From NCBI GenBank assembly GCA_963753345.1, contig CAVWBU010000047.1, positions 166,002 through 230,001 of the forward strand: a stretch of 64,000 bases of DNA, written 5' to 3'. The position numbers were made by a program, and so were the translations under genes. This DNA is from an uncultured Fibrobacterota bacterium. Its GTDB lineage: Bacteria > Fibrobacterota > Chitinivibrionia > Chitinivibrionales > FEN-1185. This document shows positions 39,968 to 56,408 of this stretch, one piece after another (positions within the stretch are counted from its first letter, which is position 1; every line of letters starts with the position of its first letter). Below the pieces are notes generated by a model. The model was not told where the DNA came from. It ran no database searches and saw only the letters and a program-made list of their open reading frames with translations.

Positions 39968-42067
39968 TTTACTTCGTGCGTCCTTACGCATTGCCGCCAC
40001 CTTGTAGTATCGTGAGGAATCCCGCATGTCAAGCTTCTCATATACTGCGCTCAGCAACCGGAACGCAGCGACAACATCGGGCTTTCTCCTCAGGGCTCGA
40101 TGGCAGTCTGCAATTGCGGAGTCAAACCGACCGGCCGCGGCAAAGGCCGAACCGCGGGAAACGTAATTTCCCGTGCTGTCCGGCAGGAGGTTGATTGCCC
40201 TGGTGAAGAACGGCAGTGATGCTAATGCCCGGCCACCTCTCAACAATTCTTCCGCCGCTGCCAAAGAGAGGTTCGCGGACAAAGGATTGAGTCTTACCGC
40301 CTGCACCATTTCAAAAAGCGGCCTGTCCGGGTCTCCCTTTTTCAAATATGCGACGCCAAGATAGTAGTGAGCCTCCCAACTGAGCGGCCGCACTGCGAGA
40401 GCGCGATTGAGGCACAATATGGCGCTGTCAACAGAGTCGTATCTGAGATTCACAAGAGAAAGCCTGTACCAGGCGGAAAAAAAGTCGGGCCTGCACACGA
40501 TTGCTTTGCGGTAACATTCGACTGATTGCGAGGTCCTGCCGAGCGATTCGTACATTTCGCCGAGACATTCCTGAGCGCCCGCATGATTTGAATCTGCGCT
40601 CACCGCTTTCAGGAAGAAGAATAGCGCTTTTCCCGGTTTGTTCTCGTATCTCATAACAAGACCGGAATTGTAAAGTGCGGCGGGGTAGTTTGGGAAAATC
40701 CTGAGCGCTTCTGAAAAGTGGAATAGGGCGCTGTCGGGCATGCCCTTCCGAAGGAAAACCCCGCCAAGATTGTTGTGCGCAACGTAATTCCCTTGTGTGA
40801 CGGCAAGTGCGTGTCTGAAAAGCGTTGTGCTGTCGCTCCAGTAGGATGTCTGTCGCCTTGCAAGAAAGGAAAGGACAAAAAGGATGATGCATGCACCAAC
40901 GGCGGACAACCTCCGGCCTGAAGGATGAGGCATTGCAACCGCGGAAATGCTCCAGATCGCAATGATAAAAACGCCTATGAGTGGAATATACGAATATCTA
41001 TCCGCCAAAGCCTGCGAACCAACCTGCACTATTCCTATCACCGGCAGCAGGGAAATCACATACCAGAGCCATCCGGTAATAAACCATGGGGCCCGGCGCA
41101 GCAGCCTTATTGCCGCAACAGTGATTCCTGCCAGAACAAGGAAGGATAACGCCGCAAGCGGAAGGCTTATCTCCGGGGCGAGGGGATAGAAGAAAGCCAA
41201 TTTTATCGGCCACACGGCGAGCAGCAGATAATGCATATAGGAAATGACTGCACCGACGATCCTCATGTCAAGCGGGGAACCGGCCACCGCGCCGGAGTGC
41301 TTTTGCGCAAGAAAGGCGATCCAGCACACGACTATCGACAAAGCCGCAAACGGCGCCTTCTCTAAAAGCAACTTTTTCCAGGAGGTCCGCGGAGCCGTGC
41401 CGCTTTCCCGGTGTTTGCCGCACTCACTGCCGGGCCGCAGCCGGCCGAGCGGCCAGTAATCGAGCACCAGCAGGAGAAGAGGCAGGGTGACGACCATTGG
41501 TTTTGCCATGAGGCAGGCGGCAAAGTAGATAAGGGTGCGGACATAGTGCGACCGACGGAGCGTCCTCGCATAGGCAACATACGTCCACAAACTCAACAGC
41601 AGGAAGAACGTCGAAAGAACGTCTTTTCGTTCGGAAATCCAAGCAACGGATTCGACATGCAGGGGATGAAGCGCGAAGAGAAACGAAACCAGCGCGCTTC
41701 GCCATTGCGCTCCTGTGGCGGCTGCAAGAACAAGAAAGAGAAGCAGAGCATTGGCGACATGCAGACAGACGTTTGTCAGGTGGTAGCCGCCCGGGTCGTT
41801 TCCGAAAAGGTCGCGGTCGAGCATGAGCGACAGCCACGTGAGCGGATGCCAATTTGCCGCATCCATTGAGGTGAACGCCCAGCGGACGCTCTTGGCGGTG
41901 AGACCGGACTGCACGTTGGTGTTGTCGTACACATACTCATCGTCGTCATAATTAACAAAAGCGAAATTCCGCGCCGGCCAGTATACCCAGAGCGTGCCGC
42001 CGGCGATGGCCGCGAGGAAAATCGGCCTCACAAGGGTGCTGTTGAAAATTGCCGCGGGTAAACGCAC
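39953..42067 (-). CDS. TMTC-like GT-C membrane protein with C-terminal TPR repeats
   Basis: FVNYDD, NWHPLTWLS, LHPLHVESVAWISERKD, ADRYSY.P, followed by TPRs (AHNNLG). Confidence 0.88.
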   Translation of the reverse strand: MRLPAAIFNSTLVRPIFLAAIAGGTLWVYWPARNFAFVNYDDDEYVYDNTNVQSGLTAKSVRWAFTSMDAANWHPLTWLSLMLDRDLFGNDPGGYHLTNVCLHVANALLLFLVLAAATGAQWRSALVSFLFALHPLHVESVAWISERKDVLSTFFLLLSLWTYVAYARTLRRSHYVRTLIYFAACLMAKPMVVTLPLLLLVLDYWPLGRLRPGSECGKHRESGTAPRTSWKKLLLEKAPFAALSIVVCWIAFLAQKHSGAVAGSPLDMRIVGAVISYMHYLLLAVWPIKLAFFYPLAPEISLPLAALSFLVLAGITVAAIRLLRRAPWFITGWLWYVISLLPVIGIVQVGSQALADRYSYIPLIGVFIIAIWSISAVAMPHPSGRRLSAVGACIILFVLSFLARRQTSYWSDSTTLFRHALAVTQGNYVAHNNLGGVFLRKGMPDSALFHFSEALRIFPNYPAALYNSGLVMRYENKPGKALFFFLKAVSADSNHAGAQECLGEMYESLGRTSQSVECYRKAIVCRPDFFSAWYRLSLVNLRYDSVDSAILCLNRALAVRPLSWEAHYYLGVAYLKKGDPDRPLFEMVQAVRLNPLSANLSLAAAEELLRGGRALASLPFFTRAINLLPDSTGNYVSRGSAFAAAGRFDSAIADCHRALRRKPDVVAAFRLLSAVYEKLDMRDSSRYYKVAAMRKDARSKEPRP

Positions 42068-42076
42068 AAATGCCTG

Positions 42077-43978
42077 CTAGGGTTTGGCGTTTTTTGGTTC
42101 AAGCATGGCAAGCGAGTCTGCGACGAAACGCGAATAGCGCGCGGAATCACCGTTGCCGCACGCCTCAAAGGCCTTTGCCAGCTGACGGTGGGTATCGGCA
42201 TGGCGAGGGGCAAGCTCGATTGATTTTCGGTACCATTGAATGGCCTCACCGGGAGAACTATCGAGCAGGCAGCAGTTCCCGAGCGCGAGAAAAGATTCCG
42301 CATCCTTCGGATTGGCGCGAACTGCTTCGAGAAGATAATGTCTGCAATCGGAATAGTGTTTCATTGCACCGTAGGTGACGCCCAGATTATGCAACGCCGC
42401 GGCAAACCAGGGCTCAACGGTGATCGCGCGGCGAAAACATCTGATGGCGGCCAGCGTATCGCCGAGCATGCCGTAGGCATTGCCGCAGTCGAGATTGGCG
42501 AGCGTGTTGTTTGAATCAAGGGCAAGCAGCGGTTTGAACGCGTCGATTGCCTCATGAGGCTTTCCTTGACGAAGCAGAATCAGGCCGACATTGAGCCGGG
42601 GGGTGGTCTGCGACGGGCACAGCGCAAGGGACTTGCGGAAACAGTCGATTGCTTCGGAGTTGCAGCCCTGGTCGAGAAGGAAATTTCCCTTGATGCTGTA
42701 AGCGAGGAAATTGTCCTTGGTGACGGCCAGGGCATGATTTGCCAGCGTAAAATCGTTCTTCCAATACGCGCATTGGACCCGGGTGGCCATGGTCAACACC
42801 GCAAGCACGCCTACGCATGTCGTAATGATTGAGATTTGCAAAAACCGGGAGTGCTTTGAAATGTCATACAAAAGCCACGTTATCATGATAAAAGGTCCAA
42901 TAAGGGGAACATAGGTGTATCTGTCGGCCATGGCCTGAGATCCGACCTGGACGATTCCTATTACGGGCACAAGGGTTCCAAGGAACCAGAGCCACCCGGT
43001 AAACAGATAGGGGTGTTTTGTTGTCTGCAGAACGACGACGATAGAAATCGCGGCGAGAATTACGCAGGCGAGAAGAACCGGCGCCAGGGAGATGTGGTGC
43101 GGAATGGGGTAGAAAAAACAAAGCCGAGCCGGCCAGAACATGTTTCCAAGGTAGGATGCGTACGAAACCGCAGCATTTGCAAGTCTGTTGGCAAACGGAA
43201 GATCCGTGGTCTTCACGATTGCATCGCCAAGATGCTGGGCGATCGCGGTCACTACGCATGATCCCGCAGCGACAACAAAGAAGGGAATCTTTTCCGCCAC
43301 AAGGATCGGCCAATATGTTTTCGGTTTCTCCGGTCCGGTTTGCGGCCCTACAACAGACCTATTTGAAAATCTTTTTAGCGGCCAGAAATCAAGGAGCAAC
43401 ATGACAAAAGGGAGTGTAACGAGCATGGGTTTCGCGAGCAGGCCCAGACAGAAGAACGCAAACGATCCGGCATAGTCCTTTGGTTTTTTCCGCGATACGT
43501 AGCGCGAGTACCAGAGCAGGGAAAGAAACAACAGCATGGTGCTCAAAACGTCCTTGCGCTCAGAGACCCATGCCACGGATTCAACATGAAGCGGATGGAG
43601 ACCGAACAATGCGGCCACAAACGCGCTTTTCCACACAGACCCGGTGAGCGACCTTAGAACAAAGAACAACAGCAGCGTGTTGATCAAATGAAAAACCAGG
43701 TTCGTCAGGTGATGGCCGGCCGGCCGGTCGCCGTACAGCATGCAGTCAAGGGCGTGCGACAGCCAGGTGAGAGGGTGCCAGTTCGCGGCCTCGAAGGTAG
43801 TAAAGGCCCATTTCAGGTTTTCCCCGCTGATGCCGGTCATCACGTGGTGATTCTTGGAAACGTACTGATGATCGTCGATGCTCACAAAATCGCACTTGTC
43901 AACATTCCAGTAAGCAAATGCCGTGCAGATCACGAGCGAAAAGAATATGAAGTAAAGGATATTTCGTTGATGCATCAT
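42077..43978 (-). CDS. TMTC-like GT-C membrane protein with C-terminal TPR repeats (paralog)
   Basis: FVSIDD, NWHPLTWLSH, LHPLHVESVAWVSERKD, MADRYTYVP, TPRs; start may be 44050. Confidence 0.88.
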   Translation of the reverse strand: MMHQRNILYFIFFSLVICTAFAYWNVDKCDFVSIDDHQYVSKNHHVMTGISGENLKWAFTTFEAANWHPLTWLSHALDCMLYGDRPAGHHLTNLVFHLINTLLLFFVLRSLTGSVWKSAFVAALFGLHPLHVESVAWVSERKDVLSTMLLFLSLLWYSRYVSRKKPKDYAGSFAFFCLGLLAKPMLVTLPFVMLLLDFWPLKRFSNRSVVGPQTGPEKPKTYWPILVAEKIPFFVVAAGSCVVTAIAQHLGDAIVKTTDLPFANRLANAAVSYASYLGNMFWPARLCFFYPIPHHISLAPVLLACVILAAISIVVVLQTTKHPYLFTGWLWFLGTLVPVIGIVQVGSQAMADRYTYVPLIGPFIMITWLLYDISKHSRFLQISIITTCVGVLAVLTMATRVQCAYWKNDFTLANHALAVTKDNFLAYSIKGNFLLDQGCNSEAIDCFRKSLALCPSQTTPRLNVGLILLRQGKPHEAIDAFKPLLALDSNNTLANLDCGNAYGMLGDTLAAIRCFRRAITVEPWFAAALHNLGVTYGAMKHYSDCRHYLLEAVRANPKDAESFLALGNCCLLDSSPGEAIQWYRKSIELAPRHADTHRQLAKAFEACGNGDSARYSRFVADSLAMLEPKNAKP

Positions 43979-44233
43979 AGCCGAGGTCTTACTACGGTCG
44001 TGCGCCAAAACGAGACCGTCCAGGGGAGGGACAATGTGGTATCCTTTCATTATACTATATTTTCAAGGCCGGATACCACGGCAACCGCGGGAAAAGGCAG
44101 GACATATTTCCCGCTGGAATCGTATCGGCGACGGCCACACGCCAAGCTCATTTTTTGCTTGAAAACGCAGATGTTGCTATTGTAGGATCAAATATCATAT
44201 TTTTGTTCAACAGTTGAACAAAAGGCGCCTATC

Positions 44234-44545
44234 GTGATTGAATACAAAGTAATCCGCGAAATAGAACTCAATCCAATGCACACGCAGCGGAGTCTTGCCG
44301 AAAAGCTTGACATCAGCCTCGGCAAAGCGAATTACGTTCTTGCCGGACTCATGGAAAAAGGCATTGTCAAAGCGAACAAGCTGAAAAACAATCCGGACAA
44401 GATACGGTGGCAGTATATCCTCACGCCGGCGGGCGTCAAGGAAAAAATAAAGATAACCCAGCGGTATCTGCGGCACCGCCTGCAGGAATACGGCGAAATC
44501 CGGAAAGAAATAGCGCAGCTGGAGCAAGAGGTTTCGGCAAAGTAA
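44234..44545 (+). CDS. EPS-associated MarR family transcriptional regulator
   Basis: TQRSLA..L.ISLGKANY.L..L.EKG.VK...YILTP.G..EK. Confidence 0.9.
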   Translation: MIEYKVIREIELNPMHTQRSLAEKLDISLGKANYVLAGLMEKGIVKANKLKNNPDKIRWQYILTPAGVKEKIKITQRYLRHRLQEYGEIRKEIAQLEQEVSAK

Positions 44546-44694: not shown

Positions 44695-45204
44695 ATGAAA
44701 CTTGCGACATTTGAAAAGATCGTGAAAGCCCTTAACAGGAACAAGGCGCGATATCTTGTTGTAGGCGGCATGGCGGTGGTTGCGCACGGATACGGAAGGC
44801 TGACCTATGATCTTGATCTTGTCTTGCAGTTGACCAGTGAAAATATCCTGAGAGGATTCTCCGCACTAGAGCGCCTTGGCTACAAGCCCAAGGTTCCCGT
44901 AACGGGGCAACAATTCGCGAATCGCAAACTTCGCGAAAGCTGGATCAGGGACAAAGGCATGATGGTCCTCAATCTCTTCAGCGACGAGCATCCTGATACT
45001 CCCGTTGATATTTTTGTGAGGGAACCGTTTGATTTCGATGCACAATATTCCGCCGCCGTTGAAGAGGAGTTATCCAAGGGCGTCCGGTTTCGATACGTGA
45101 ACATTGCCACACTTATCGCTATGAAAAAGAAGGCCGGACGCGACAAAGACCGGGACGACGTCACGCATCTCAAGATCATTCAGAAAGAAGCGCGCGATGC
45201 ATAG
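44695..45204 (+). CDS. Nucleotidyltransferase-fold protein (module 1)
   Basis: YLVVGGMAVVAHGYGRLTYDLDL; C-terminal LIAMK..AGR.KD..D. Confidence 0.82.
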   Translation: MKLATFEKIVKALNRNKARYLVVGGMAVVAHGYGRLTYDLDLVLQLTSENILRGFSALERLGYKPKVPVTGQQFANRKLRESWIRDKGMMVLNLFSDEHPDTPVDIFVREPFDFDAQYSAAVEEELSKGVRFRYVNIATLIAMKKKAGRDKDRDDVTHLKIIQKEARDA

Positions 45205-45370
45205 GCGCTCAATCCGGAAACACCTTCCTGATTGGAACAGCGGAATAAGGCTGCAGTTGCTGCATTTCAGATCGCTTTCGATAAGGGAAAAAATTAAGAT
45301 TGTGGAGGATATGGAAGGACTGGCCAGCTTCCTGCGCGCAAGAAAGAAAAGGCGCCTGTTGGCAACCTGA
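45197..45370 (+). CDS. 57-aa small partner protein (not in ORF track)
   Basis: MHRRSIRKHLPDWNSGIRLQLLHFRSLSIREKIKIVEDMEGLASFLRARKKRRLLAT*; overlaps the NTase stop. Confidence 0.65.
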   Translation: MHRRSIRKHLPDWNSGIRLQLLHFRSLSIREKIKIVEDMEGLASFLRARKKRRLLAT

Positions 45371-45532
45371 TCTTGTCGAAAAAGATCCATTACTGCGCGT
45401 TGTTTCACCCATGTGGGGAACGCCCTGGGGAAAAGGGATATTCTCGGTGATTTTCACCTTGCACCTTATCTATTTTTCCTTCATGACAACCACTACCATT
45501 CACCCCCCAAACCGATTTCCAGGAAGTTAACC

Positions 45533-46544
45533 ATGGAACAGCCTCCCGTAATCAGGCAAACAATGCCCGGGAACCAACCGTTATCTCATTCGCCCGCCGT
45601 ACTGCCTCACGACCCGGACGAGATAAACCTCCTGGAATACCTCTACGCGCTTGTCAAACACAAGCGGCTGATTATCGGGGCAACCGTACTGGGACTCGTG
45701 CTGGGCTTCGTGGCGGCGCTTGTCAAGGGCCCGACCTGGGTGGGAGAGGCGGTGATCGCGCCAAAGGAGCGGGAATCCCAGCAATCCACGTCGCTGGCCC
45801 AGCTTGGCGCGCTCGGCGGCATCGTGGCAAGCCAGCTTAACCTCGATCAGGGCAGTGCGAGCCTTAACACCATGGACATGATACTGGACAGCCGGGATTT
45901 CGGGGCGAAGCTGATCGAGAAGTATTCCCTATTGCCTGCCATTTACAAATATCAATGGCCGGGGAAATTCAAAAAGTACTGGGACCAGTCGAGAAACACA
46001 TGGAAATCGAATTTTGCTCAGCCGCAACCGCTGGCTATGGGGGGCTATGATACAAGCGAAATATCTTAAGAAGACGAAAGACACCAAAAAGAACGTAATC
46101 GTATTGTCCATTCAATCCAAAGATTCCACATTTACGAGCACTCTTGCGGCTAGGTATATAGAATATCTGAATGAGTATATTCGAACAAAAGTCCAGAACG
46201 AAGCAAAAGAAAACGTGGCGTACCTTGACAGTGAGCTTGTCAATATCCCCGACCCGTTGCTCCGATCAAAAATCGTCGGACTTCTCGCGAGCGAAATCGA
46301 GAAGGAAATGGTGGTAAGCAGGGAGGCGTTCAAGGTATCGGACCCATTGTATCTGCACAAGATCTTCAAGGAAAAGAAACTTTTTCCGCTTGTTTTCGGG
46401 TTTGGACTGTTCTTCCTGAGCTGCCTCATTGTAGTGTTCATCCACGCCTTCAGCTCTTCCGACAAGACCGAGGAAGACAAAGACCTTATCGAAAAGATAA
46501 GAAGAGAGTTTACGCTGTTGCCGCGAGCGGGGAAAAGAACGTGA
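45533..46544 (+). CDS. Wzz-like chain-length determinant, frameshift at ~46045
   Basis: DEINLLEY...KHKRLI TM1, periplasmic region, C-terminal TM2 (PLVFGFGLFFLSCLIVVF). Confidence 0.82.
46368..46523 (+). repeat. Direct repeat copy 1 (wzz 3' end)
   Basis: 156 bp, ~9 mismatches against 51194-51349. Confidence 0.93.
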
Positions 46545-46579
46545 ACATCCGCCGCGAATAGGTCAAAGGAAAGCAAAGC

Positions 46580-46987
46580 ATGGAAACGGATAGTAAAACA
46601 GCGGCGCTTGCGCCGATAATTGCCCTTCTACGCGAAAAAGCCGAATTCGTATTATTGTTCGGATCAATAAAAAGCGGGCGAATAATGCCGGAAAGCGATA
46701 TTGATATAGGCGTTTACCTGAAAAAAGGGAAACTGGATTTTGAGGAATACCTTAGACTAAAAGGCGCCCTGTCCGATGCATCGGAGAGAGAGGTAGACCT
46801 TGTTATCCTCAACACCTGCGACATCATCATCGCGATGCAGATTATCGCAAACGGAGAACTGATTATCAACAATAACCCCGGAATGTTCATTCGTTACAAA
46901 GCGGAAAAAATCAGCGAATACATCGATTTTAAGATGTCCCGCAAGATCATTGAAGAAAATCTCCTGAGAGGCGGAATATATGCTTGA
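46580..46987 (+). CDS. MntA-type minimal nucleotidyltransferase antitoxin
   Basis: LFGS-X10-DID (GSIKSGRIMPESDIDIG), VDLVIL. Confidence 0.9.
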   Translation: METDSKTAALAPIIALLREKAEFVLLFGSIKSGRIMPESDIDIGVYLKKGKLDFEEYLRLKGALSDASEREVDLVILNTCDIIIAMQIIANGELIINNNPGMFIRYKAEKISEYIDFKMSRKIIEENLLRGGIYA

Positions 46988-47402
46988 GAAGGACGCGATA
47001 TTGTCGAAAATATCCATTATCAAGCATTGTCTTGAAACCATCAACAGGGTAACGGGCCTTGACCCGGACCGGCTCGACGATATCATGGCACAGGACGTGT
47101 TTGTGTTGAACGTGCAACGAAGCGTACAGGCGTGCATTGACATCGCAAATATTCTCATCGCGGAAAACGGATGGAAACTTCCATCAAGCTACAAAGAGTC
47201 GTTTTCAATCATTTCCGGCAAGAATGTAATTTCCGAGGAACTCGGGAAGACCATGATGAAAATGTGCGGGTTCAGAAATATCGCCGTGCATGATTATCAG
47301 CAGATAACCTCCGAAATCATGAAGTCCATGCTCACGCACCACCTCAAGGATTTCGCGGAATTCTACTCGATTGTTTTCGAATATATCAACAGGATGCCGT
47401 GA
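46980..47402 (+). CDS. HepT/DUF86 HEPN ribonuclease toxin
   Basis: Q..ID.A, GFRNIAVHDY (RX4H followed by Tyr). Confidence 0.92.
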   Translation: MLEKDAILSKISIIKHCLETINRVTGLDPDRLDDIMAQDVFVLNVQRSVQACIDIANILIAENGWKLPSSYKESFSIISGKNVISEELGKTMMKMCGFRNIAVHDYQQITSEIMKSMLTHHLKDFAEFYSIVFEYINRMP

Positions 47403-47463
47403 CGCAAAGCGCGCACTTTCGTGAGCACCCGTCGTTTTTGCAAATTTTCAAAAACAAACGATT

Positions 47464-48273
47464 ATGATAAAGAACCCTTACCAGCAACTCCAGCATGAGT
47501 TTGTATCCGCTGGCGCGAAAGTCTTGCTGAGCTCCGGCCAGGCTTGTGTGGCATATGGCATTGCGGCCTTTTCAAAAGACGGCGACTGGGTAATTGAAGA
47601 ATCGGATATTTCGTGCCGCGCGGTATTGTCGGTTCTTGAACGTAAAGGTGCGGATTACAGGCTAGGGGTGCCACTTGACATTCGTTGGCTTGCAAAGGGT
47701 TGGACGAGCCACTTTGAGTACATGGACGGCGACCTCAGGGTGAGGACGGATTTCTGCTCCCGGCCGCCAAGGATCAGCGACATCAAACGATTATGGGCGG
47801 ATGCGGTCCAAAAATACGGTATCAGCGTTGTTGATGCACAGAGTCTTATTCGGTTAAAATCGTCGCGGCGATCCCGCGACTATATTGCAATCGGCGCTCT
47901 CGCGGAAGAACTCGGACTTAACGCTAATCTTCCCGAGTTGGCTTTGGAATACCTTCAAGATTATACCCCGTTGGCAAAAGCGGTCAAGCGATGGCCTGAA
48001 GCCGCTGTACGGTGCGATCGAGAGGCCGTTCGTCTTCTTCTGCAACAGGCTTCCCGCGATAGCGTCGTCAACTCCCTGGCACGAGAGCGAGATAGAATGA
48101 TGGAAGCCGACGAAAAACGGATCCAACGAATGCTTCGCGCATCCGCGGGCTATCAGGATGCTTTCTCCGCTCTTAAGAAATCGTGGAAGCAACAAGGGTC
48201 AAAGCTTATGCAACAGCATGCGGATCTTTGCTCCGCGGCCGCACCCTTGCTGGGAGAGAACCTCAATGGTTGA
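47464..48273 (+). CDS. Divergent nucleotidyltransferase-fold protein (module 3)
   Basis: LLSSGQACVAYGIAAFSKDGDWVI matches the GG.A...G...T.D.D pattern; LIRLK...R.RDY. Confidence 0.65.
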   Translation: MIKNPYQQLQHEFVSAGAKVLLSSGQACVAYGIAAFSKDGDWVIEESDISCRAVLSVLERKGADYRLGVPLDIRWLAKGWTSHFEYMDGDLRVRTDFCSRPPRISDIKRLWADAVQKYGISVVDAQSLIRLKSSRRSRDYIAIGALAEELGLNANLPELALEYLQDYTPLAKAVKRWPEAAVRCDREAVRLLLQQASRDSVVNSLARERDRMMEADEKRIQRMLRASAGYQDAFSALKKSWKQQGSKLMQQHADLCSAAAPLLGENLNG

Positions 48274-48472
48274 TTCCGCACGCATCCGGGCTGCGTCTTT
48301 GCGCCTCCTTGAGCCGTACACCATTCCACCCGACACGGTGTACCTTTCCGACGACCAGCGGGAGCTCAGCGAATTGCCGTTTGAAAAGCGGGCGGAATGG
48401 ATGGCGGAGTGGCTGTTGCTCGCGGCAAGAACGAATGAGAGCGAGGGGCGGGTGACAGAATGCCTCCCATGA
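48266..48472 (+). CDS. Small hypothetical partner protein
   Basis: MVDSARIRAASLRLLEPY...ELPFEKRAEWMAEWL; overlaps the upstream stop; GGAGAG RBS. Confidence 0.55.
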   Translation: MVDSARIRAASLRLLEPYTIPPDTVYLSDDQRELSELPFEKRAEWMAEWLLLAARTNESEGRVTECLP

Positions 48473-48720
48473 CCGACGACACGTCCCAAAAGGCCCAGCG
48501 GATCCTCATTAATGGATACCGCAGCATGCCGGCACGGCGCAAAATGCGCCAGGTTGTCACAATGACCCAGGCAGTACAGCGGATGGCGCTTGCGCGTCTC
48601 AGGAAGCAATATGGAAAGATGAACGAGCGGGAAGAGCGATTACGTCTGGCCGCTTTATGGCTCCCGCGGAAGACCATGGTCCGGCTCTTCGGCTGGGACC
48701 CGGTAAAGCAGGGGTATTGA
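48460..48720 (+). CDS. Small helical partner protein (module 4)
   Basis: DTSQKAQRILINGYRSMP..RK...; translationally coupled to the next NTase. Confidence 0.7.
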   Translation: MPPMTDDTSQKAQRILINGYRSMPARRKMRQVVTMTQAVQRMALARLRKQYGKMNEREERLRLAALWLPRKTMVRLFGWDPVKQGY

Positions 48721-48721
48721 G

Positions 48722-49315
48722 ATGCCGCTCGCTGACCCGCTTCTTATCGTGAGAAAAGTTACTGCGGTTTTTCAGGAGCTCAAGATTCCCTATCTGGTGG
48801 GCGGCTCTCTTGCAAGTTCTCTGCACGGAATTCCTCGGGCGACCCAAGACGCGGACATCGTGGCCGATCTTGGGCTCGCGGACATGGAGAAAATCGTAAC
48901 GTTGCTCGCCCATGATTTCTACATCGACAAAGAAAGCGCGGAGCGGGCGGTTCGCGAGAGGTCTTCCTTCAATATTATCGACAAAGAAGAAATTTTCAAG
49001 GTAGATATTTTCGTCAAAGGGAATGACGAGCTTTCGGACTTGGAAATGGAGCGAAGAATATCCTTCGAGGTGGGTGACGCCGGCGAGCAGCCGATCTTCG
49101 TATGCTCCCCGGAAGACATAATTGCCCACAAACTCTTCTGGTACAAGTCGGGAGAGGGCGTATCCGAACGGCAGTGGAACGACGCGATCAACGTCATAAA
49201 AGTTCAGCGGAGCAGCCTCGATTACGAGTATCTGCGGCGGGCCTCCAAGGCGCGAGGGGTCCTGGATCTGCTCGAAAAAGCATTGCGGGAAAACAAAGCG
49301 GAAGAGCTTTTGTGA
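48722..49315 (+). CDS. Nucleotidyltransferase-fold protein (module 4)
   Basis: YLVGGSLASSLHGIPRATQDADIV, KVDIF, SPEDII.HKL.W, SERQW.D. Confidence 0.82.
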   Translation: MPLADPLLIVRKVTAVFQELKIPYLVGGSLASSLHGIPRATQDADIVADLGLADMEKIVTLLAHDFYIDKESAERAVRERSSFNIIDKEEIFKVDIFVKGNDELSDLEMERRISFEVGDAGEQPIFVCSPEDIIAHKLFWYKSGEGVSERQWNDAINVIKVQRSSLDYEYLRRASKARGVLDLLEKALRENKAEELL

Positions 49316-49328
49316 AAAAGGATGCCCG

Positions 49329-49697
49329 ATGATTGACCTGAAGAAGGCCAGGGGAAATATCGACAGAAGATACGAAGCCGCCAGACAGCGCGCCGTGGAG
49401 GATTTCACGGTTGCCGCCCGCGACTGTTCCGCAATCGTGAAAATGATCGAATCCAAATACCTGCCGAAAAGAATATACCAGTGGGGCTCGCTGCTTCACC
49501 CCGAGCGATTCGATGAAAACTCGGACATCGATCTTGCCGTTGAAGGAATAACCGATGCGGAGACGTTTTTTGCCCTGCTGGGCGATGCCATGAAACTTAC
49601 GCAGTTTCCTCTTGATATCGTTCAAATTGAGAAGATTGAAAAAGAGTTTGCGGAAGCAATTCGTCAGTCGGGAAAGGTCGTTTATGAACGCACGTGA
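49329..49697 (+). CDS. Minimal nucleotidyltransferase (MNT, module 5)
   Basis: IYQWGSLL...F.ENSDIDLAVEG, LDIVQIE. Confidence 0.88.
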   Translation: MIDLKKARGNIDRRYEAARQRAVEDFTVAARDCSAIVKMIESKYLPKRIYQWGSLLHPERFDENSDIDLAVEGITDAETFFALLGDAMKLTQFPLDIVQIEKIEKEFAEAIRQSGKVVYERT

Positions 49698-50178
49698 GAA
49701 CATCAATTCATTGCGCGGAGAAATCCAACGCGGCCTGGCGGTGCTGGAGAGAATCGAGAAGTACTTCGTCGAATTTCAGGAGAACCGGCTCTCCGCGGCA
49801 TCGGGAACGGACGAAGCCATGGTGGTTGCACAAGCGCTGTCCAACTACTATACCTGTCTTGAAACCCTCTTCCTGAGGATTTCCCAGTTTTTTGAAAACA
49901 ACCTTGATCCCAAGCGCTGGCACCAGTCACTGCTGGAAAAAATGCTGTTGGAAATACCCGACTGCCGTCCACGCGTTATATCCGACGAAACCTTTCGCAC
50001 GATGAACGAGTTTTTGAAATTCCGGCATTTTACGCGCTACTATTTTGAAATGGACTATGACTGGGATAAGTTGCGCTATCTGATAAAGAAGTTTAACGAC
50101 GTTCGTGTGACGATAAGGAACCAAATGCTTACGTTTGACGCATTCCTGGCCGCACTGGCGCAAACAGGTGAAAAATGA
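49684..50178 (+). CDS. HepT-like HEPN protein (module 5)
   Basis: NYYT.LE..F.RI, WHQSLL..M, RP.VIS, FRHFTRYYF. Confidence 0.82.
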   Translation: MNARENINSLRGEIQRGLAVLERIEKYFVEFQENRLSAASGTDEAMVVAQALSNYYTCLETLFLRISQFFENNLDPKRWHQSLLEKMLLEIPDCRPRVISDETFRTMNEFLKFRHFTRYYFEMDYDWDKLRYLIKKFNDVRVTIRNQMLTFDAFLAALAQTGEK

Positions 50179-50411
50179 TTTTTTGCAAACGTCAATGATT
50201 TCAATGGCTGATATGGCTGTTTCTTGTGTCGAGAACGGATGAGAGCGAAGGGCGGGGGAAAACGATAGGTTGGCCTGGGGTATGTGAAAGACGGTGGGAA
50301 ATGCGGGGAACGGAGAGAAGCTCGCGTAGTTGCTAAAAGGGTATAAACCGGCGGATTGCGAACACCGGTTTGTGAACGATGCGGACATACGGAACGGAAC
50401 GAGGGGGCGCC

Positions 50412-50732
50412 ATGGAAATTAAAAGTTTGAATGACATCCGGACGCTTGCACAACCGGTGTTTGCCCAATCACCGGCTCAAAAAGCGGTCGTGTTCGGGTC
50501 TTGGTCGCGCGGGGCCCAGTCACGGAAATCGGATATTGACATCATGATAATTTCCAAGAGCACGCAAAAACGCTTCTTTGACAGATACGAAGATTTCAAC
50601 GGATTATATGACGCCTTCGGCAAGATCGGCTTGGATTTGCTGATTTATACGGATGAGGAATTATCCGCAATGAAAGACCGCTCATTCATACAAACCGTAT
50701 TGCGGGAAGGGGTTGTTATCTATGAGCGTTGA
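50412..50732 (+). CDS. Minimal nucleotidyltransferase (MNT, module 6)
   Basis: VFGSWSRG....SDIDIMII, DLLIYT.EE, EGVVIYE. Confidence 0.9.
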   Translation: MEIKSLNDIRTLAQPVFAQSPAQKAVVFGSWSRGAQSRKSDIDIMIISKSTQKRFFDRYEDFNGLYDAFGKIGLDLLIYTDEELSAMKDRSFIQTVLREGVVIYER

Positions 50733-51141
50733 AAAGAAAGATGCCCAGGCCTTGCGTTGGTTTTCCACGGCCCAGGACGATATGGGTGCAGCGGAAATAC
50801 TGCATAAAAACAAGAAGTTCGCCCAAAGTTGTTTTCACTCTCAGCAAGCGGGAGAAAAGGCCCTAAAGGCATTGTACTTCCTAAACGATGTTGAACCCTG
50901 GGGACATTCTTTATTAAAACTGTCGAAAGAGTTTGTCGGCCCAGCGGATATTATGGAAGAATTAAAAACATATGAAAAAACATTTCGTGAATTAGACCGA
51001 TATTACATTTCAACCAGATATCCGGATGGTTTGCCCGGAACCATTCCATCCGAAGCATATGATTCCGGCGATTCTGAGTCAGCGATCGAATCGGCGAAGA
51101 AAATAATAATATTGGTTCAGAACAAACTGGCGAAAAAATAA
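50722..51141 (+). CDS. HEPN domain protein (module 6)
   Basis: W...A..D...A, CFHSQQAGEKALKA, GHSL, LDRYYISTRYP. Confidence 0.9.
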   Translation: MSVEKKDAQALRWFSTAQDDMGAAEILHKNKKFAQSCFHSQQAGEKALKALYFLNDVEPWGHSLLKLSKEFVGPADIMEELKTYEKTFRELDRYYISTRYPDGLPGTIPSEAYDSGDSESAIESAKKIIILVQNKLAKK

Positions 51142-51193
51142 CTGCTGAAGTTGATTTCGAGGCGGTGGGTACGGTGCGGCTGTATATGAACTT

Positions 51194-51349
51194 AAGGAAA
51201 AGAAACTCTTTCCGCTTGTTTTCGGGTTCGGACTGTTCTTCCTGAGCTGCCTCATTGTAGTGTTCATCCGCGCCTTCAGCTCTTCCGACAAGACCGAGGA
51301 AGACAAGGACCTTGTCGAAAAGATAAGAAAAGAGTTGAGGCTGATGCCG
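51194..51349 (+). repeat. Direct repeat copy 2: orphan wzz 3' fragment
   Basis: Encodes KEKKLFPLVFGFGLFFLSCLIVVFIRAFSSSDKTEEDKDLVEKIRKE with no 5' part of the gene. Confidence 0.93.
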
Positions 51350-51396
51350 GGGGGAAGAAATAGCGAAATGTTGTTGTGCCGGAAAAAACAAAACCT

Positions 51397-52140
51397 ATGG
51401 CAAACCCTGTAAAACTTCGCGGTAACGTCGCTTCGTTGACAAGACATGACAAAGACGTTTTTGCGGTGTCCATTATGCCTGAGCGGTGCATACCGCGATT
51501 TAAGGCCGGACAGTTTCTTCATCTTGCGCTTGATGATTATGACCCCCAGGGTGGGTTCTGGCCCGAGTCCCGCGTGTTTTCGATAGCTTCGGCTCCGACA
51601 AGCGAACAGATTGAAATCGTTTACAGTGTTAAGGGCCGCTACACCGCCCGTATGCGGGGTGAACTCGCAATAAGCAAACAGGTCTGGCTCAAATTGCCCT
51701 ATGGCGAGTTTTCAATCGACAGTGCAGCAGCCGCAGGTCAGGACATCGTGCTCGTGGCCGGCGGGACCGGTCTTTCGCCTTTTCTCTGCTACCTCCGCAC
51801 CTTGCTAGACGGCAGCCCCAACACACGACGAATTCATCTGCTTTATGGCATTCGCAGCGCCGCGCATCTGCTTTGTCCCAAGGTGCTTTCTGCGTGCTGT
51901 TCTACGATAAAAGGTTTCGGCATGGATCTGTATGTCGAAAATAACGCAGACAGCGTATTATCAGGCATGAGACAGCAAGATGGGATGATTCAACTTAATC
52001 GGATCCTTGAAATAGGAAAAACCATGGCAGACCCCGCCTATTTTCTCTCTGGTCCTCCTATGATGATACAGACGTTCAAGAATGGGCTTGCTGCCGCCGG
52101 GATTAACGGCAAAAACATAAAGATTGACGAATGGGAATAG
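51397..52140 (+). CDS. FAD/NAD(P)-binding oxidoreductase (FNR-type; candidate E3/DdhD-like partner lacking the ferredoxin domain)
   Basis: FKAGQF, RVFSIAS, PYGEF, VAGGTGLSPF, SGPPMMI. Confidence 0.82.
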   Translation: MANPVKLRGNVASLTRHDKDVFAVSIMPERCIPRFKAGQFLHLALDDYDPQGGFWPESRVFSIASAPTSEQIEIVYSVKGRYTARMRGELAISKQVWLKLPYGEFSIDSAAAAGQDIVLVAGGTGLSPFLCYLRTLLDGSPNTRRIHLLYGIRSAAHLLCPKVLSACCSTIKGFGMDLYVENNADSVLSGMRQQDGMIQLNRILEIGKTMADPAYFLSGPPMMIQTFKNGLAAAGINGKNIKIDEWE

Positions 52141-52156
52141 AAGAGGAGCGGCAGTG

Positions 52157-53473
52157 ATGCCAAGATCGCCCACCGAACTTCGTAATGAGATTGTGGCTTT
52201 AGTTGAAGAATACCACAAGGTAAAATTTAGCAGGAAAGCGTTTGTGCCCGGCGAAACGCCGGTACGGTATGCGGGCCGGGTCTTTGATGAACGAGAGATG
52301 ATCTCTCTCGTCGATTCCGCGCTCGATTTCTGGCTTACTGCCGGGCGATTTGCCGAAGAGTTTGAATCAGAACTTGCCGCCTTTCTGGACCTTGAATTTG
52401 CCATGCTTGTCAACTCCGGTTCTTCCGCGAACCTTCTCGCCCTTACGGCGCTCACCTCTCCGCTGCTCGGTGATAAACGGCTTAAACCCGGTGACGAAGT
52501 GATTGCGGTTGCCGCCGGATTTCCAACAACTGTAAACCCGATTATCCAGAACAACATGGTGCCGGTGTTCGTTGATGTGAATCTTGGAACTTACAATGCC
52601 AGCCCAAACGACATCTGCAAAGCCGTCGGCCCGAAAACCCGGGCAATATTTCTTGCGCACACTCTTGGAAATCCGTATGATCTTGACGCTGTTATGGAGA
52701 TTGTTCGCGAAAAGAATCTCTTTCTAATAGAAGACTGCTGCGATGCGCTGGGCTCAACCTATAAAGGCAGGAAAGTCGGTACATTCGGAAATATCGCTAG
52801 TTTTTCTTTTTATCCCGCCCATCATATCACTCTCGGTGAAGGCGGCGCAATAGCGACCAACGATGAACATCTTGCCCGTGCCGTCAAGTCGCTTCGTGAT
52901 TGGGGCCGCGATTGTTATTGCAGCAGCGGAGAAAACAACACCTGCGGCAAGCGGTTTACCGGACAGTACGGCACACTGCCGACCGGGTACGACCACAAAT
53001 ATGTTTATTCCCATATCGGTTATAACCTAAAAGTGACGGATATGCAAGCCGCGATTGGCGTGGAACAACTCAAGAAGCTTCCTGAATTCTGTAAGAAGCG
53101 AAGGGAAAGTTTCGAGCGGTGGACTAATGGCTTCGGCAAATGGGAAGACAAATTTATTCTCCCAAAGGCGACGAACGGCGCCGACCCGGCCTGGTTCGCC
53201 TTTCCGCTCACTGTTCGTGATACAGCAGGCTTTTCCCGCACAGAATTGACAAACCATCTCGACAGCAATAAAATTGAAAGCCGGAATATTTTTGCCGGCA
53301 ACATGTTGCGGCAGCCGGCATATTGCGACATCAAATATCGCGTTCAGGGAGAGCTGAAAAACACAGACACAATTATGGAGAATTCCTTCTTTCTCGGAAC
53401 CTTTCCGGGCATCACTCAGCAACAGATTGACTTTACCATCGATGTTATTGATAAATTTTTGAGATCAAAGTGA
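52157..53473 (+). CDS. rfbH: CDP-4-keto-6-deoxyglucose 3-dehydratase (E1), copy 2
   Basis: LVNSGSSANL, EDCCDALG, YPAHHITLGEGG, RDCYC...NTCG, YDHKY. Confidence 0.95.
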   Translation: MPRSPTELRNEIVALVEEYHKVKFSRKAFVPGETPVRYAGRVFDEREMISLVDSALDFWLTAGRFAEEFESELAAFLDLEFAMLVNSGSSANLLALTALTSPLLGDKRLKPGDEVIAVAAGFPTTVNPIIQNNMVPVFVDVNLGTYNASPNDICKAVGPKTRAIFLAHTLGNPYDLDAVMEIVREKNLFLIEDCCDALGSTYKGRKVGTFGNIASFSFYPAHHITLGEGGAIATNDEHLARAVKSLRDWGRDCYCSSGENNTCGKRFTGQYGTLPTGYDHKYVYSHIGYNLKVTDMQAAIGVEQLKKLPEFCKKRRESFERWTNGFGKWEDKFILPKATNGADPAWFAFPLTVRDTAGFSRTELTNHLDSNKIESRNIFAGNMLRQPAYCDIKYRVQGELKNTDTIMENSFFLGTFPGITQQQIDFTIDVIDKFLRSK

Positions 53474-53489: not shown

Positions 53490-54266
53490 ATGAAAGTAGT
53501 AATCCTTGCCGGTGGTTTTGGAACAAGGATAAGTGAAGAGTCGGCAATCAAGCCCAAACCCATGATTGAGATCGGGCACAAGCCGATCTTGTGGCATATC
53601 ATGAAGATTTATTCCCATTATGGATTCAATGAGTTTATCATCTGTCTTGGGTACAAAGGGTACATGATAAAAGAATATTTTGCGCACTATTTTCTACATG
53701 AATCTGACGTGACATTTGATTTTAACAATAAGAACCAGCAGATAACACATAATGAATATGCAGAACCATGGAAAGTTACTCTGGTTGATACGGGTGAAAA
53801 GACAATGACGGGTGGACGACTCAAAAGAATCCAGGGCTATTTAGAAAACCAACCATTTATGTTGACCTATGGTGATGGAATAAGCGATGTGAATTTAAGC
53901 TCTTTAGTAAAATTTCATCAATCAAGAAGAATGATTGCCACGGTTACTGCCGTGCAGCCGTCCGGCAGGTTTGGGGCGCTTAATTTAACATCCGACGATC
54001 TAATCGCAGGATTTGAAGAGAAGCCCAAAGGGGACGGCGCCTGGATCAATGGCGGATTCATGGTAGCTGAACCGGAGATATTCGATTACCTTACCGACGA
54101 CGCTACAGTCCTGGAAAAAGAGCCCTTGACTCAATTGGCCGAAGAGGGCAAGCTCGTTGCGTATAAACACAGCGGATTCTGGTATGCGATGGATACGCTT
54201 CGCGATAAATTGTTTCTTGAAAATCTTTGGAATACGGGGAATGCTCCTTGGAAGATTTGGGGTTAG
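53490..54266 (+). CDS. rfbF: Glucose-1-phosphate cytidylyltransferase (copy 2)
   Basis: MKVVILAGGFGTRISEES..KPKPMIEIG, LTYGDG, GFWYAMDTLRD. Confidence 0.96.
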   Translation: MKVVILAGGFGTRISEESAIKPKPMIEIGHKPILWHIMKIYSHYGFNEFIICLGYKGYMIKEYFAHYFLHESDVTFDFNNKNQQITHNEYAEPWKVTLVDTGEKTMTGGRLKRIQGYLENQPFMLTYGDGISDVNLSSLVKFHQSRRMIATVTAVQPSGRFGALNLTSDDLIAGFEEKPKGDGAWINGGFMVAEPEIFDYLTDDATVLEKEPLTQLAEEGKLVAYKHSGFWYAMDTLRDKLFLENLWNTGNAPWKIWG

Positions 54267-54531: not shown

Positions 54532-54594
54532 TTGAGAACAGAAACCAATGATTCCAGACAGTATTGGCTATGTGTTAAAATGGAGTGGCTTGTT

Positions 54595-56376
54595 ATGAAA
54601 CAAAGAGTTGCGGATTACATTTGTGAGCAATTATATCTGGCCGGTGGCGAGCACGTTTTTCTTATTACGGGCGGTATGATCATGTATCTTACGGACGCCC
54701 TATTGCTGAATGGGAAACAGAGATATACATGCTGCCATCATGAACAAGCCGCGGTTATGGCTGCAGATGCCTACGGACGATACACCGGAAAGCTTGGAGT
54801 TGCGTTTGTTACTGCAGGGCCGGGGGCATTAAATACTCTTACGGGCGTGGTTGGAGCCTATGTTGACTCTTCTCCCTGTATCATCGTTGCCGGGCAATCA
54901 AAAGCTTCCCAAGCAAGAGTGACCGGGCCAAGACAATTTGGATTGCAAGGTTTTAATACTAAGCCGATATTCGAACACGTAACAAAGTATGCTGTTATGT
55001 TGGATGATGTGAAGCGCGTCCGCTATGAAGTTGAAAAAAGCATTTATCTTGCCAAAGAACACCGCGTCGGGCCGGTATGGATAGAATGTCCGTTGGATAT
55101 TCAAGGCGCCTTGTTTGATCCGCAGGTATATGAAGGTTTTATTCCGCCGCAAAGAAAACCCTTTGAAATCATTGACAATAACATAATCAAGCAAGCCAAA
55201 TCTCTACTTGTTAATAGCAAGCGGCCCTGTGTTCTGGCAGGGGCGGGCGTACGCTTGTCCGGCGCTGTTTCCACGCTTCACGACTTTTTGCATAAGACAA
55301 ACATCCCTATAATCACTTCGCGGCTTGGCATGGATCTGATCGGATACGACCATCCGCTTTTTGTTGGAAGGCCGGGTTCCTATGGCGACAGGCCGGCCAA
55401 TTTTACTGTCAATAACTGCGACCTTCTTTTGATAATAGGATGCAGAATGGGAATAGGGTTGGTCGGCCACGACTTTCAGAATTTCGCGCCTCGAGCAAAA
55501 AAGATCATGGTAGACGTTGACGAAAAGGAGCTATCAAAGCCTTCGGTTGTCCCCGACCTCCCTGTTTTAGCCGATGCAGACGTTTTTTTAAAGGCCCTTA
55601 CGCGCTCGCTCGGCGATTATCGATGCGCAAATACTGCGTGGATTACCCAGACGCAGCAATGGAAAGAGAAATATCCGGTTGATTTGCCGGAATATCTGCA
55701 GGAAAAAGAAGGCATTAACTCATATCATTTTGTACGGGTCTTTTCGGAAGAAATGGATAGTGATGCTGTGTTCGTTCTTGATACTGGCTCGTGCTTCCAT
55801 GTATACGCTCAGGCATTCAACGTAAAGTTCGGACAACGACATATTATTACGGGCGGACTTTCGACTATGGGCTATGTCCCTGCGGTTATCGGCGCAGCTA
55901 GAGCATGCGGAAAAGAAGTCTACTGTATTTCCGGAGATGGTTCTCTTCAGATGAACATTCAGGAATTGCAAACGATCGTGGGGAACAAATTGCCTATCAA
56001 GCTGATTATTTTAAACAACAACGGATATCTGCTTATACGGCACACACAGACTAATTTTTTGGACGGCAGGCTTATCGGCGAAAGCCCTCAAACAGGGGTA
56101 ACATTTCCGGATCTGCAAAAAATTTCGCAAGCGTATGGAATAGCATACATGAAGATATGCGGCAACGATGGACTTCACAGTAAAATAGCGATGCTTAAGA
56201 AAAGCGAGGGCCCTGTAGTATGTGAGGTTATAACACCGCCGTGGCAATTGCTTATCCCGCGTGTCGCTTCGAAAAAGCTTGAAGATGGAACGATGGTATC
56301 AATGCCCTACGACGACATGTTTCCCTTCTTACCCCGAGAAGAATATCGCAACAATTGCGTGTTCGACAAAATTTGA
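54595..56376 (+). CDS. ThDP-dependent carboligase (YerE/ErwE-like), copy 2
   Basis: VADY, HHEQAA, TAGPGALN, GPVWIECPLDIQ, GDGSLQMNIQEL, NNNGY, DDMFPFL. Confidence 0.9.
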   Translation: MKQRVADYICEQLYLAGGEHVFLITGGMIMYLTDALLLNGKQRYTCCHHEQAAVMAADAYGRYTGKLGVAFVTAGPGALNTLTGVVGAYVDSSPCIIVAGQSKASQARVTGPRQFGLQGFNTKPIFEHVTKYAVMLDDVKRVRYEVEKSIYLAKEHRVGPVWIECPLDIQGALFDPQVYEGFIPPQRKPFEIIDNNIIKQAKSLLVNSKRPCVLAGAGVRLSGAVSTLHDFLHKTNIPIITSRLGMDLIGYDHPLFVGRPGSYGDRPANFTVNNCDLLLIIGCRMGIGLVGHDFQNFAPRAKKIMVDVDEKELSKPSVVPDLPVLADADVFLKALTRSLGDYRCANTAWITQTQQWKEKYPVDLPEYLQEKEGINSYHFVRVFSEEMDSDAVFVLDTGSCFHVYAQAFNVKFGQRHIITGGLSTMGYVPAVIGAARACGKEVYCISGDGSLQMNIQELQTIVGNKLPIKLIILNNNGYLLIRHTQTNFLDGRLIGESPQTGVTFPDLQKISQAYGIAYMKICGNDGLHSKIAMLKKSEGPVVCEVITPPWQLLIPRVASKKLEDGTMVSMPYDDMFPFLPREEYRNNCVFDKI

Positions 56377-56408
56377 GCCATAGTTGTTCAGCATAAAACA
56401 CTATCTTA

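Follow-up and report, generated by a model that had tools for sequence, protein, structure and literature searches.

Six nucleotidyltransferase-based two-gene modules at the head of a glycan locus in an uncultured Fibrobacterota bacterium: a candidate cargo hotspot for toxin–antitoxin systems

Layout of the array

The DNA discussed here is a window of 64,000 nucleotides, that is, positions 166002-230001 of contig C47 in a 4.5-Mb metagenome bin (G000, 94% complete, 4.79% contamination) of an uncultured Fibrobacterota bacterium from peat. Our subject is an array of six two-gene modules, each containing a nucleotidyltransferase (NTase), which occupies 44695-51141 on the + strand, between the gene of a MarR_EPS regulator (44234-44545) and a set of cytidine diphosphate (CDP)-sugar genes that begins at 51376. 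Three of the modules pair a minimal nucleotidyltransferase (MNT) with a HEPN protein, the latter from three different families (PF01934, PF20797 and PF05168). The other three consist of MenT/AbiEii-like NTases, called NT169, p269 and NT197, each with a small neighbouring open reading frame (ORF). A sequence-only reading of this DNA had proposed an array of six two-gene NTase modules, and the location of all of them on the + strand, together with their families and folds, bears this out (Table 1).

The same reading had described the genes as co-oriented and mostly overlapping, which agrees with what we find: every module has the same orientation, and of the 14 consecutive junctions six are overlaps of 8-20 nt and two more are gaps of 1 and 13 nt. 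No terminator-like sites were found on the + strand in 44700-51400, and promoter hits from a sigma-70 consensus scan were set aside, the consensus being of uncertain relevance for this phylum. Since the modules share the orientation of the operon and are almost spacer-free, they are probably read through, and hence co-transcribed, with the glycan genes.

The array had also been placed next to marR-wzz. This has to be corrected, as the chain-length determinant gene wzz lies within the module span, with one module between marR and wzz and five 3' of wzz. In the window assembly, wzz is split into two frames at 46039-46046, a run of six G. The contigs of all four public sequencing runs considered below have one base fewer at 46045 and a T>G change at 46046, which gives a single open frame; the frameshift thus probably arose in assembly or is a private variant. 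Two features of the span add to the earlier account, namely a 3' remnant of a second wzz and a 3' remnant of sm68, the small partner gene of p269.

Table 1. Features of the array and its surroundings (window coordinates, except in the last row, which refers to loci of related genomes).
Feature	Coordinates	Strand	Remarks
MarR_EPS regulator	44234-44545	+	conserved first gene of the locus head; TIGR04176 118.9 bits (cut-off 88)
NT169 + sm57 module	44695-45370	+	
NT169	44695-45204	+	MenT/AbiEii/DUF6036-like NTase, toxin-like; motif VVGGMAVVAHGYGRLTYDLDL; DUF6036 (PF19502) 20.4 bits, under the 23.6 cut-off
sm57	45197-45370	+	small ORF, 8-nt overlap with the NT169 stop; no Pfam match
wzz (wzzA)	45533-46544	+	chain-length determinant; Pfam Wzz over the N-terminal part
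Direct repeat, copy A	46368-46523		3' end of wzzA; 156 nt, 94% identical to copy B
MntA1 + HepT1 module	46580-47402	+	
MntA1	46580-46987	+	class I MNT, antitoxin-type adenylyltransferase; NCBIfam MntA_antitoxin 87.4 bits (cut-off 60)
HepT1	46980-47402	+	HEPN RNase toxin type (PF01934); NCBIfam HepT_toxin 131.6 bits (cut-off 60)
p269 + sm68 module	47464-48472	+	
p269	47464-48273	+	unannotated NTase family of ~267 aa, MenT1/JHP933-like predicted fold
sm68	48266-48472	+	conserved small partner of p269, antitoxin-like
p86 + NT197 module	48460-49315	+	
p86	48460-48720	+	small conserved protein directly 5' of NT197, antitoxin-like position
NT197	48722-49315	+	MenT1-like NTase, toxin-like
mnt2 + HepT2 module	49329-50178	+	
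mnt2	49329-49697	+	MNT; Polbeta PF18765 36.7 bits (cut-off 26.9); GS-x11-DxD
HepT2	49684-50178	+	HepT-like_2 HEPN protein; PF20797 93.2 bits (cut-off 27)
Spacer	50179-50378		200 nt
sm68 3'-end remnant	50204-50258		46-55 nt, between HepT2 and mnt3
mnt3 + HEPN3 module	50379-51141	+	
mnt3	50379-50732	+	MNT of the class II pair; Polbeta 38.5 bits, NTP_transf_2 35.9 bits
HEPN3	50713-51141	+	HEPN protein; PF05168 91 bits
Spacer	51142-51375		234 nt
Direct repeat, copy B	51194-51349		3' remnant of a second wzz
FNR-like reductase	from 51376	+	
RfbH	52124-53473	+	688.9 bits (cut-off 423)
Glucose-1-phosphate cytidylyltransferase (RfbF)	53490-54266	+	TIGR02623 422.5 bits (cut-off 300)
PF05635 genes of relatives	L102:8539-8895; L102:12161-12532; L023:13044-13409; L033:13508-13870		

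Two kinds of NTase module

While the count of six modules stands, the single label of NTase module hides two opposite logics. By analogy with characterized systems, the NTase would be the antitoxin in the MNT-HEPN pairs and the toxin in the MenT/AbiEii-like pairs.

For the MNT-HEPN pairs, Yao 2020 (PMC7641770) assigns PF01934-type pairs to class I and PF05168 pairs to class II. The sequence criteria for type VII class I systems are an upstream MNT with a GSx10DxD motif and a HEPN protein with an Rx4HxY motif, and both are present in MntA1/HepT1. The MNT gene lies directly 5' of HepT1 with an 8-nt overlap and encodes GS-IKSGRIMPES-DID, and RNIAVHDY of HepT1 fits Rx4HxY. Compared with the type VII HepT/MntA system, as given in PMC4621449 (2015) and PMC7641770 (2020), the likeness extends to the upstream position of the MNT, the stop/start overlap, both motifs and the equivalog scores. 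The mnt2 and mnt3 pairs differ from that system in using PF20797 and PF05168 HEPN proteins that lack Rx4HxY, and the pairs of the array are embedded in a glycan operon and do not form a lone bicistron. The analogy is firm only for MntA1/HepT1. In neither of the two papers, consulted for the genomic context of the Shewanella pair SO_3165/3166, is there any mention of the word ‘polysaccharide’.

GSx10-11DxD is found in all three MNTs of the array, Rx4HxY in HepT1 only. HepT2, whose likely start is the ATG at 49684 (14-nt overlap with mnt2) and not the TTG at 49612, does not match the NCBIfam HepT model and has FRHFTRYY in place of Rx4HxY. In the same-genus genome G002, the slot of mnt2-HepT2 is occupied by a module of just 26% identity, which points to turnover within one subfamily. 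The mnt3 protein carries GS-WSRGAQSRKS-DID (GS-x10-DxD) and is 79% identical to its G002 counterpart, and HEPN3 has RYYISTRYPD and no Rx4HxY. The pair thus corresponds to the class II definition, a PF05168 HEPN protein without Rx4HxY beside a GSx10DxD MNT.

A grouping of multiple MNT and HEPN genes is also described for crenarchaeal extremophiles in the 2013 census by Anantharaman et al. (PMC3710099), a paper that does not contain the word ‘polysaccharide’. Unlike those clusters, the present array is bacterial, belongs to a glycan locus and includes MenT-like modules as well.

We now consider the MenT-like NTases. NT169, p269 and NT197 reach none of the Pfam cut-offs. For AbiEii/DUF1814 (PF08843), the score of NT197 is 17.8 bits (cut-off 22.5), and NT169 and p269 do not match, so that all three are classed as MenT-like by fold and not as members of the family. 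NT169 matches the MenT1 sequence of 8an4 with an E value of 0.0087 and NT197 with 27% identity and E 5e-5 (BLASTP). In a 10-sequence alignment of relatives, G28, R39, T41, D43, D45, D95, K137 and D154 of NT197 are invariant, and NT169 and NT197 share the invariant G, R-T-D-D, third Asp, Lys and Asp. The catalytic DxD and the third Asp are invariant in both the p269 and the NT197 family alignments.

The predicted model of NT197 (mean predicted local distance difference test, pLDDT, 91.1) matches MenT1 (8an4/8an5) with E 8e-7 and template-modelling (TM) scores of 0.62-0.65. For the model of p269 (pLDDT 93.4), the nearest structures are JHP933 of H. pylori and MenT1, with Foldseek matches to 4ok0 (E 2e-5) and to MenT1 8an4 (E 3e-4; TM 0.45-0.60), and both models also match the TM1012 nucleotidyltransferase. 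PDB searches by sequence only gave weak matches at most for the three proteins, and hhalign with the p269 profile gave no match to NT197 and, at 8.5% probability, one to NT169 with E 0.0039. We group the three NTases on the basis of motifs, folds, the BLASTP match between NT169 and NT197, and iterative hidden Markov models (HMMs), which may drift.

For the p269-sm68 module, an interaction between the partners is predicted. None of the 181 homologues of p269 has a Pfam domain, and the SSGQAC...SKDGDW signature is invariant; sm68 has 53 unannotated homologues of ~60-68 aa, several of which share a contig with p269 homologues. The predicted complex of the two proteins has a score of 0.92, compared to 0.01 for the best control; 58 of 80 solved complexes and two of 110 mismatched pairs attain this mark, counts that are approximate here since the alignments were our own. 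Contact agreement between runs is at least 83%, and the pLDDT of the partner is at least 73. In the model, the interface on p269 would comprise residues 26, 29-38 and 90-92, beside the catalytic motif. The complex model backs, although it does not prove, binding of sm68 to p269. In G002, the body of p269 has been deleted and its first 34 codons are fused to an intact sm68 frame, which is the order of loss expected for a toxin and its antitoxin.

Like sm68, p86 represents a genuine family of small proteins; it has 34 homologues, none with a Pfam domain, and the one in genome G022 (59% identity) precedes an NTase 3' of wzz. The sm57 ORF is shortened in the window and corresponds, at 65% identity, to the N-terminal half of a G002 ORF of 128 aa (L021:10975-11361). 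There, this ORF is followed by another NTase-like ORF; the window lacks both the C-terminal half and that NTase, and 162 nt are left before wzz.

With the MenAT/AbiE systems (MenT1-MenA1, 8an4/8an5; Xu et al. 2023, PMC10435456; Cai et al. 2020, PMC7450476), the modules share the predicted folds of NT197 and p269 and the presence of a small adjacent partner, and p86 lies upstream of NT197 as MenA does of MenT. The p269 protein differs in its greater length, a C-terminal helical domain, SSG instead of GG and a downstream partner, and both p86 and sm68 belong to unannotated families.

Another option considered for the array NTases was an identity in the sugar-nucleotide pathway. This was rejected, the real glucose-1-phosphate cytidylyltransferase being a separate gene at 53490-54266.

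Elsewhere in the same genome, three ORFs of ~150 aa (C26:2414-2866, C26:62064-62522 and C7:257-709) match the MenT-like HMM, all with E ~1e-48, and these may be copies of one repeated element.

Clustering, recurrence and putative recombination scars

The sequence-only reading had named a lack of enrichment at glycan loci over the genome background as a point that would count against it. In this genome, the cluster is not a product of chance. The array holds three of the nine Polbeta MNTs of the genome, one of three HepT-like proteins, one of four PF05168 HEPN proteins and three of seven MenT-like NTases, the last counted with HMMs built in this analysis. Six of the 16 NTase-fold genes in 4.5 Mb hence lie within 6.45 kb, a cluster that was obtained in none of 200,000 random placements; even three such genes together have a P of 0.003. 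The paralogues of the array are at most 33% identical, and over short stretches, which means that they are not tandem duplicates. Four further wzz-like genes exist in the genome, on contigs without such modules. Where the genes can be compared with G002, they are under purifying selection, with ratios of nonsynonymous to synonymous substitution rates (dN/dS) of 0.09 for NT169, 0.13 for HEPN3, 0.22 for mnt3, 0.25 for sm68 and 0.32 for sm57; the values for marR and wzz are 0.09 and 0.11.

The position of the modules recurs in relatives. We surveyed 81 genomes of the order, 30 of which have MarR_EPS. At least 22 of 150 listed PF18765 matches in these 30 share a contig with MarR_EPS and are no more than 10 kb away from it, in 11 genomes from six families, and all of the 22 are on the marR strand. 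Uniform placement would give ~0.9 (31 windows of 20 kb in 145 Mb), so that the MNT excess near MarR_EPS is ~25-fold. In a species-genome scan with HMMs built in the analysis, 23 of 80 MarR_EPS loci, from several phyla, have at least one module, always co-oriented with marR. These are 15 of the 27 Fibrobacterota-like loci and eight of the 53 others, which include Gallionellaceae, Sulfuricellaceae and Saccharospirillum bins. Together with the scars described below, this sustains the earlier proposal of an accretion hotspot.

Two parallels to the window are G002, where the regulator is 85% identical and the overall array layout is the same, and G072, where 7-8 modules follow the layout of the window: two MNT-HEPN pairs stand between marR and wzz, and behind wzz come a MenT-like NTase, an MNT-HepT pair and more MNT/HEPN genes. 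HEPN3-type genes are found near MarR_EPS in seven genomes of four families with 33-81% identity, accounting for eight of the 20 matches to this type; those in G022, G072, G078, G017 and G073 are 33-48% identical to HEPN3. Full-text searches, which do not cover subscription journals, returned no report of toxin–antitoxin (TA) or NTase modules at MarR_EPS/wzz or at glycan-locus heads.

The description of the hotspot as NTase-only is valid for the window, but not for the site. A Pfam scan of 20 unassigned ORFs at the hotspots of relatives gave BrnT, Zeta and ParE toxins, four PF05635 four-helix proteins, an AbiEii fragment, a set of Schlafen AlbA_2, AAA_22 ATPase and helix-turn-helix (HTH) proteins, and genes for glycan synthesis and sulfate activation.

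Two observations on these ORFs can be added. The PF05635 genes, of the ‘23S rRNA intervening sequence’ family, score 113-130 bits and occur in three relatives, next to marR and wzz or between them. An AAA_22 ATPase of 516/517 aa lies within the module arrays of G072 and G073 (L101:6574-8919; L102:9162-10712), and the one in G072 is accompanied by Schlafen AlbA_2 and winged-helix proteins and looks defence-type.

The two copies of the wzz repeat bracket five modules and align over 171 nt at 92% (blastn). The sm68 remnant aligns with sm68 itself (48410-48455 versus 50214-50259, 83% identical) and with the sm68 ends in G002 and G006. G002 has scars of its own, a 330-nt wzz remnant after HEPN3 and three sm68 remnants. 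In addition, a site just 5' of the intact G002 wzz matches the last 39 nt at the stop of HEPN3, and in G022 and G072 a HEPN3-type gene lies immediately 5' of wzz. The wzz and sm68 remnants look like recombination scars. On the simplest reading, the ancestral order would have been marR, mnt3-HEPN3, wzz, and in the present lineage a second module-bearing head would have recombined in, with most of one wzz copy lost later.

The population data consist of Logan contigs from four public runs of two studies, on peat and freshwater sediment. These contigs cover the array at 95-99+% identity and bridge wzz into MntA1-HepT1-p269 (46006-47762; 46030-48375) and HEPN3 into the wzz remnant (50944-51207). 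In two of the runs, 141 nt of spacer and wzz remnant are missing (joint 51139>51281). At the start of the glycan genes, after 51393, one contig of run X1 departs from the window, and G002 has no DNA match to the window beyond 51360. The head of the locus is thus conserved, and the genes behind it are strain-variable. At the sm68 repeats there are contig joints that skip forward (48396>50213) or go back (50203>48401), with 38 nt on one side, which is too little for calling a presence/absence variant. None of the public runs listed as holding this DNA is an RNA run.

The summed contig depth over 48331-48517, the 3' region of sm68, is approximately doubled in runs X1 and X3 (24 versus ~11), as expected if two repeat copies collapse in assembly graphs.

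That no integrase and no attC are visible had been noted from the sequence, and this remains the case. All eight matches to the tyrosine recombinase family PF00589 in the genome are on contigs other than C47, a scan for attC-type inverted repeats gave just three weak pairs of 70-75% complementarity, and the repeats at the junctions are coding remnants. The scars show how arrays of this kind may grow and decay without an integrase.

As for the surroundings, the gene content behind the array marks this as a CDP-dideoxyhexose-type glycan locus; farther 3' of RfbH and RfbF are a thiamine diphosphate (ThDP) enzyme and NDP-sugar dehydratase-like genes. The region 54532-58320 encodes a ThDP enzyme resembling acetolactate synthase, an acetylating acetaldehyde dehydrogenase and a 4-hydroxy-2-oxovalerate aldolase, a set that one would not expect in a glycan locus. 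It might be used for a dideoxy sugar with a branched chain or some other modification. Upstream of the head, and divergent from it, 39953-44050 on the - strand encodes two membrane proteins, paralogues of 657 and 704 aa, which carry TPR repeats at the C terminus and weakly match PEP-CTERM PrsT-like TPR proteins.

A probable cargo hotspot and its alternatives

The explanation that we favour, and consider reasonably probable, is that the array is a TA cargo hotspot which recombination has built at a conserved head, in front of glycan genes that vary by strain. The head, that is, MarR_EPS and wzz, would be filled with self-contained TA modules of two NTase-based kinds. In the MNT-HEPN pairs, the HEPN protein would be an RNase toxin that the upstream MNT neutralises by AMPylation, by analogy with type VII HepT/MntA. 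The MenT/AbiEii-like NTases would, by analogy with MenT, block tRNA charging through nucleotide addition to the acceptor ends, and would be restrained by their small neighbours sm68, p86 and perhaps sm57. The modules would be mutually unrelated and have arrived separately, their arrival and reshuffling taking place by recombination between variant locus heads, which could have left the duplicated wzz 3' ends and the sm68 remnants at the junctions. The gene content, the motifs and folds, the predicted p269-sm68 complex, the clustering and recurrence, the scars and the purifying selection are what the data show; toxicity, the neutralisation chemistry, co-transcription, the recombination route and a persistence through addiction are inferred.

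Diverse small conflict modules likewise come together at one address in the defence or cargo hotspots that lie between conserved core genes and in the TA arrays of chromosomal integrons. The present array resembles these in its strain-variable content and in having no integrase nearby. It differs in that its address is the regulatory head of an exopolysaccharide (EPS) or O-antigen-type operon, in that its cargo is always operon-oriented and dominated by NTase modules, and in that its junctions carry remnants of wzz and of one cargo gene instead of att sites.

It is important to note that several points weigh against this explanation. Concerning recurrence, 56 of the 206 PF18765 matches in the 30 genomes are unplaced, related genomes are non-independent samples in the counts, the locus HMMs were trained on the same loci, which probably makes the counts outside Fibrobacterota undercounts, and the genomes outside the phylum come without a per-genome background. 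Concerning the p269-sm68 complex, the score may partly mirror solved NTase TA complexes such as MenAT1. The contig joints at the sm68 repeats may be graph artefacts, as the contigs are of the de Bruijn type and the flank on one side is so short. Finally, class II pairs have no Rx4HxY and are not validated as TA according to Yao 2020 (PMC7641770). To judge from its distribution over four families, the HEPN3-type module seems to have been inherited vertically along with the locus head; selfish elements do not usually behave in this way, and the module may have a function for the host.

The first alternative is an anti-phage defence island at a receptor locus, in which abortive-infection modules are exchanged together with the glycan genes. 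We regard this as rather unlikely as the explanation of the array, although it is compatible with a cargo hotspot and does not exclude it. Defence hotspots can lie between core genes without an integrase, and the layout of the array may resemble them. The MNTs match the PADLOC candidate families PDC-S09 (E 3e-12) and PDC-M05A (E 1.6e-9), PDC-M70A is also matched, and the relatives have the Schlafen AlbA_2/AAA_22/HTH set and other toxins at the same site. However, these PADLOC families are candidates without cut-offs, and seven of the ten proteins scanned against PADLOC-DB have no match: only the MNTs match, and none of the scanned HEPN proteins and MenT-like NTases does, with HEPN3 and sm68 outside the scan. 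The mnt3 protein additionally has weak matches to PADLOC oligonucleotide cyclases (E 0.002-0.007).

A second alternative, less probable still, concerns at least mnt3-HEPN3. Here, the pair would not be a TA system but a domesticated two-subunit NTase that serves the glycan locus in regulation or modification. The class II status of the pair, the absence of Rx4HxY from HEPN3, the dN/dS of 0.13-0.22 for HEPN3/mnt3 and the occurrence of HEPN3-type genes beside MarR_EPS in four families agree with this, as do the copies immediately 5' of wzz in G022 and G072, which at 43-48% identity have diverged about as much as wzz. Domestication of MNT-HEPN pairs into regulatory NTases is also reported in the 2013 HEPN census (PMC3710099). 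Against domestication, 12 of the 20 HEPN3-type matches lie away from MarR_EPS, some of them on small contigs, G004, G077 and G016 have marR-wzz without any module, and no substrate can be named for mnt3-HEPN3 as a glycan-locus NTase.

An integron-like cassette system, with the junction repeats as sites of a dedicated recombinase, could be suggested by the repeats that several of the module junctions carry, in G002 as in the window, but these are the 3' ends of wzz and sm68 and not attC-like hairpins, and contig C47 has no tyrosine recombinase (PF00589); this reading is already disfavoured and we give it very little credence. The most remote of the alternatives, an artefact of assembly or binning by which different strains were pieced together, is largely refuted, for although the source is a metagenome bin with 4.79% contamination and the wzz frameshift is missing from all four public runs, contigs from the runs of two studies bridge the wzzA/MntA1-HepT1-p269 and HEPN3/wzz-remnant junctions, and G002 has a matching overall layout.

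Returning to the cargo hotspot, its significance lies in two directions. Firstly, p269-sm68 represents a new, unannotated family of NTase plus partner with a wide distribution (181 and 53 homologue clusters) and a complex that is predicted with confidence, for which nature provides a derivative with the toxin-like gene deleted and the antitoxin-like gene retained. Secondly, HEPN/MNT is, according to PMC7641770, probably the most abundant prokaryotic TA module, and its physiological role is obscure. The ~25-fold excess of such modules at one defined address, which spans six Fibrobacterota families with hints in Proteobacteria, would give a setting in which this role can be tested. Possible roles are in locus exchange, in the response to phage pressure on the glycan receptor, or in operon stabilisation. 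No observation made here bears on the response to nucleotide pools that the sequence-only reading had also put forward.

One can also speculate, as an unlikely extension, that the modules are not mere passengers. Either the ancient class II pair between marR and wzz would be a working part of the locus, as a two-subunit NTase that regulates or modifies the glycan machinery, or the modules would act by operon addiction, tying growth to the continued transcription and retention of the glycan operon. If true, either version would provide the most abundant, functionally obscure TA family with a concrete physiological context.

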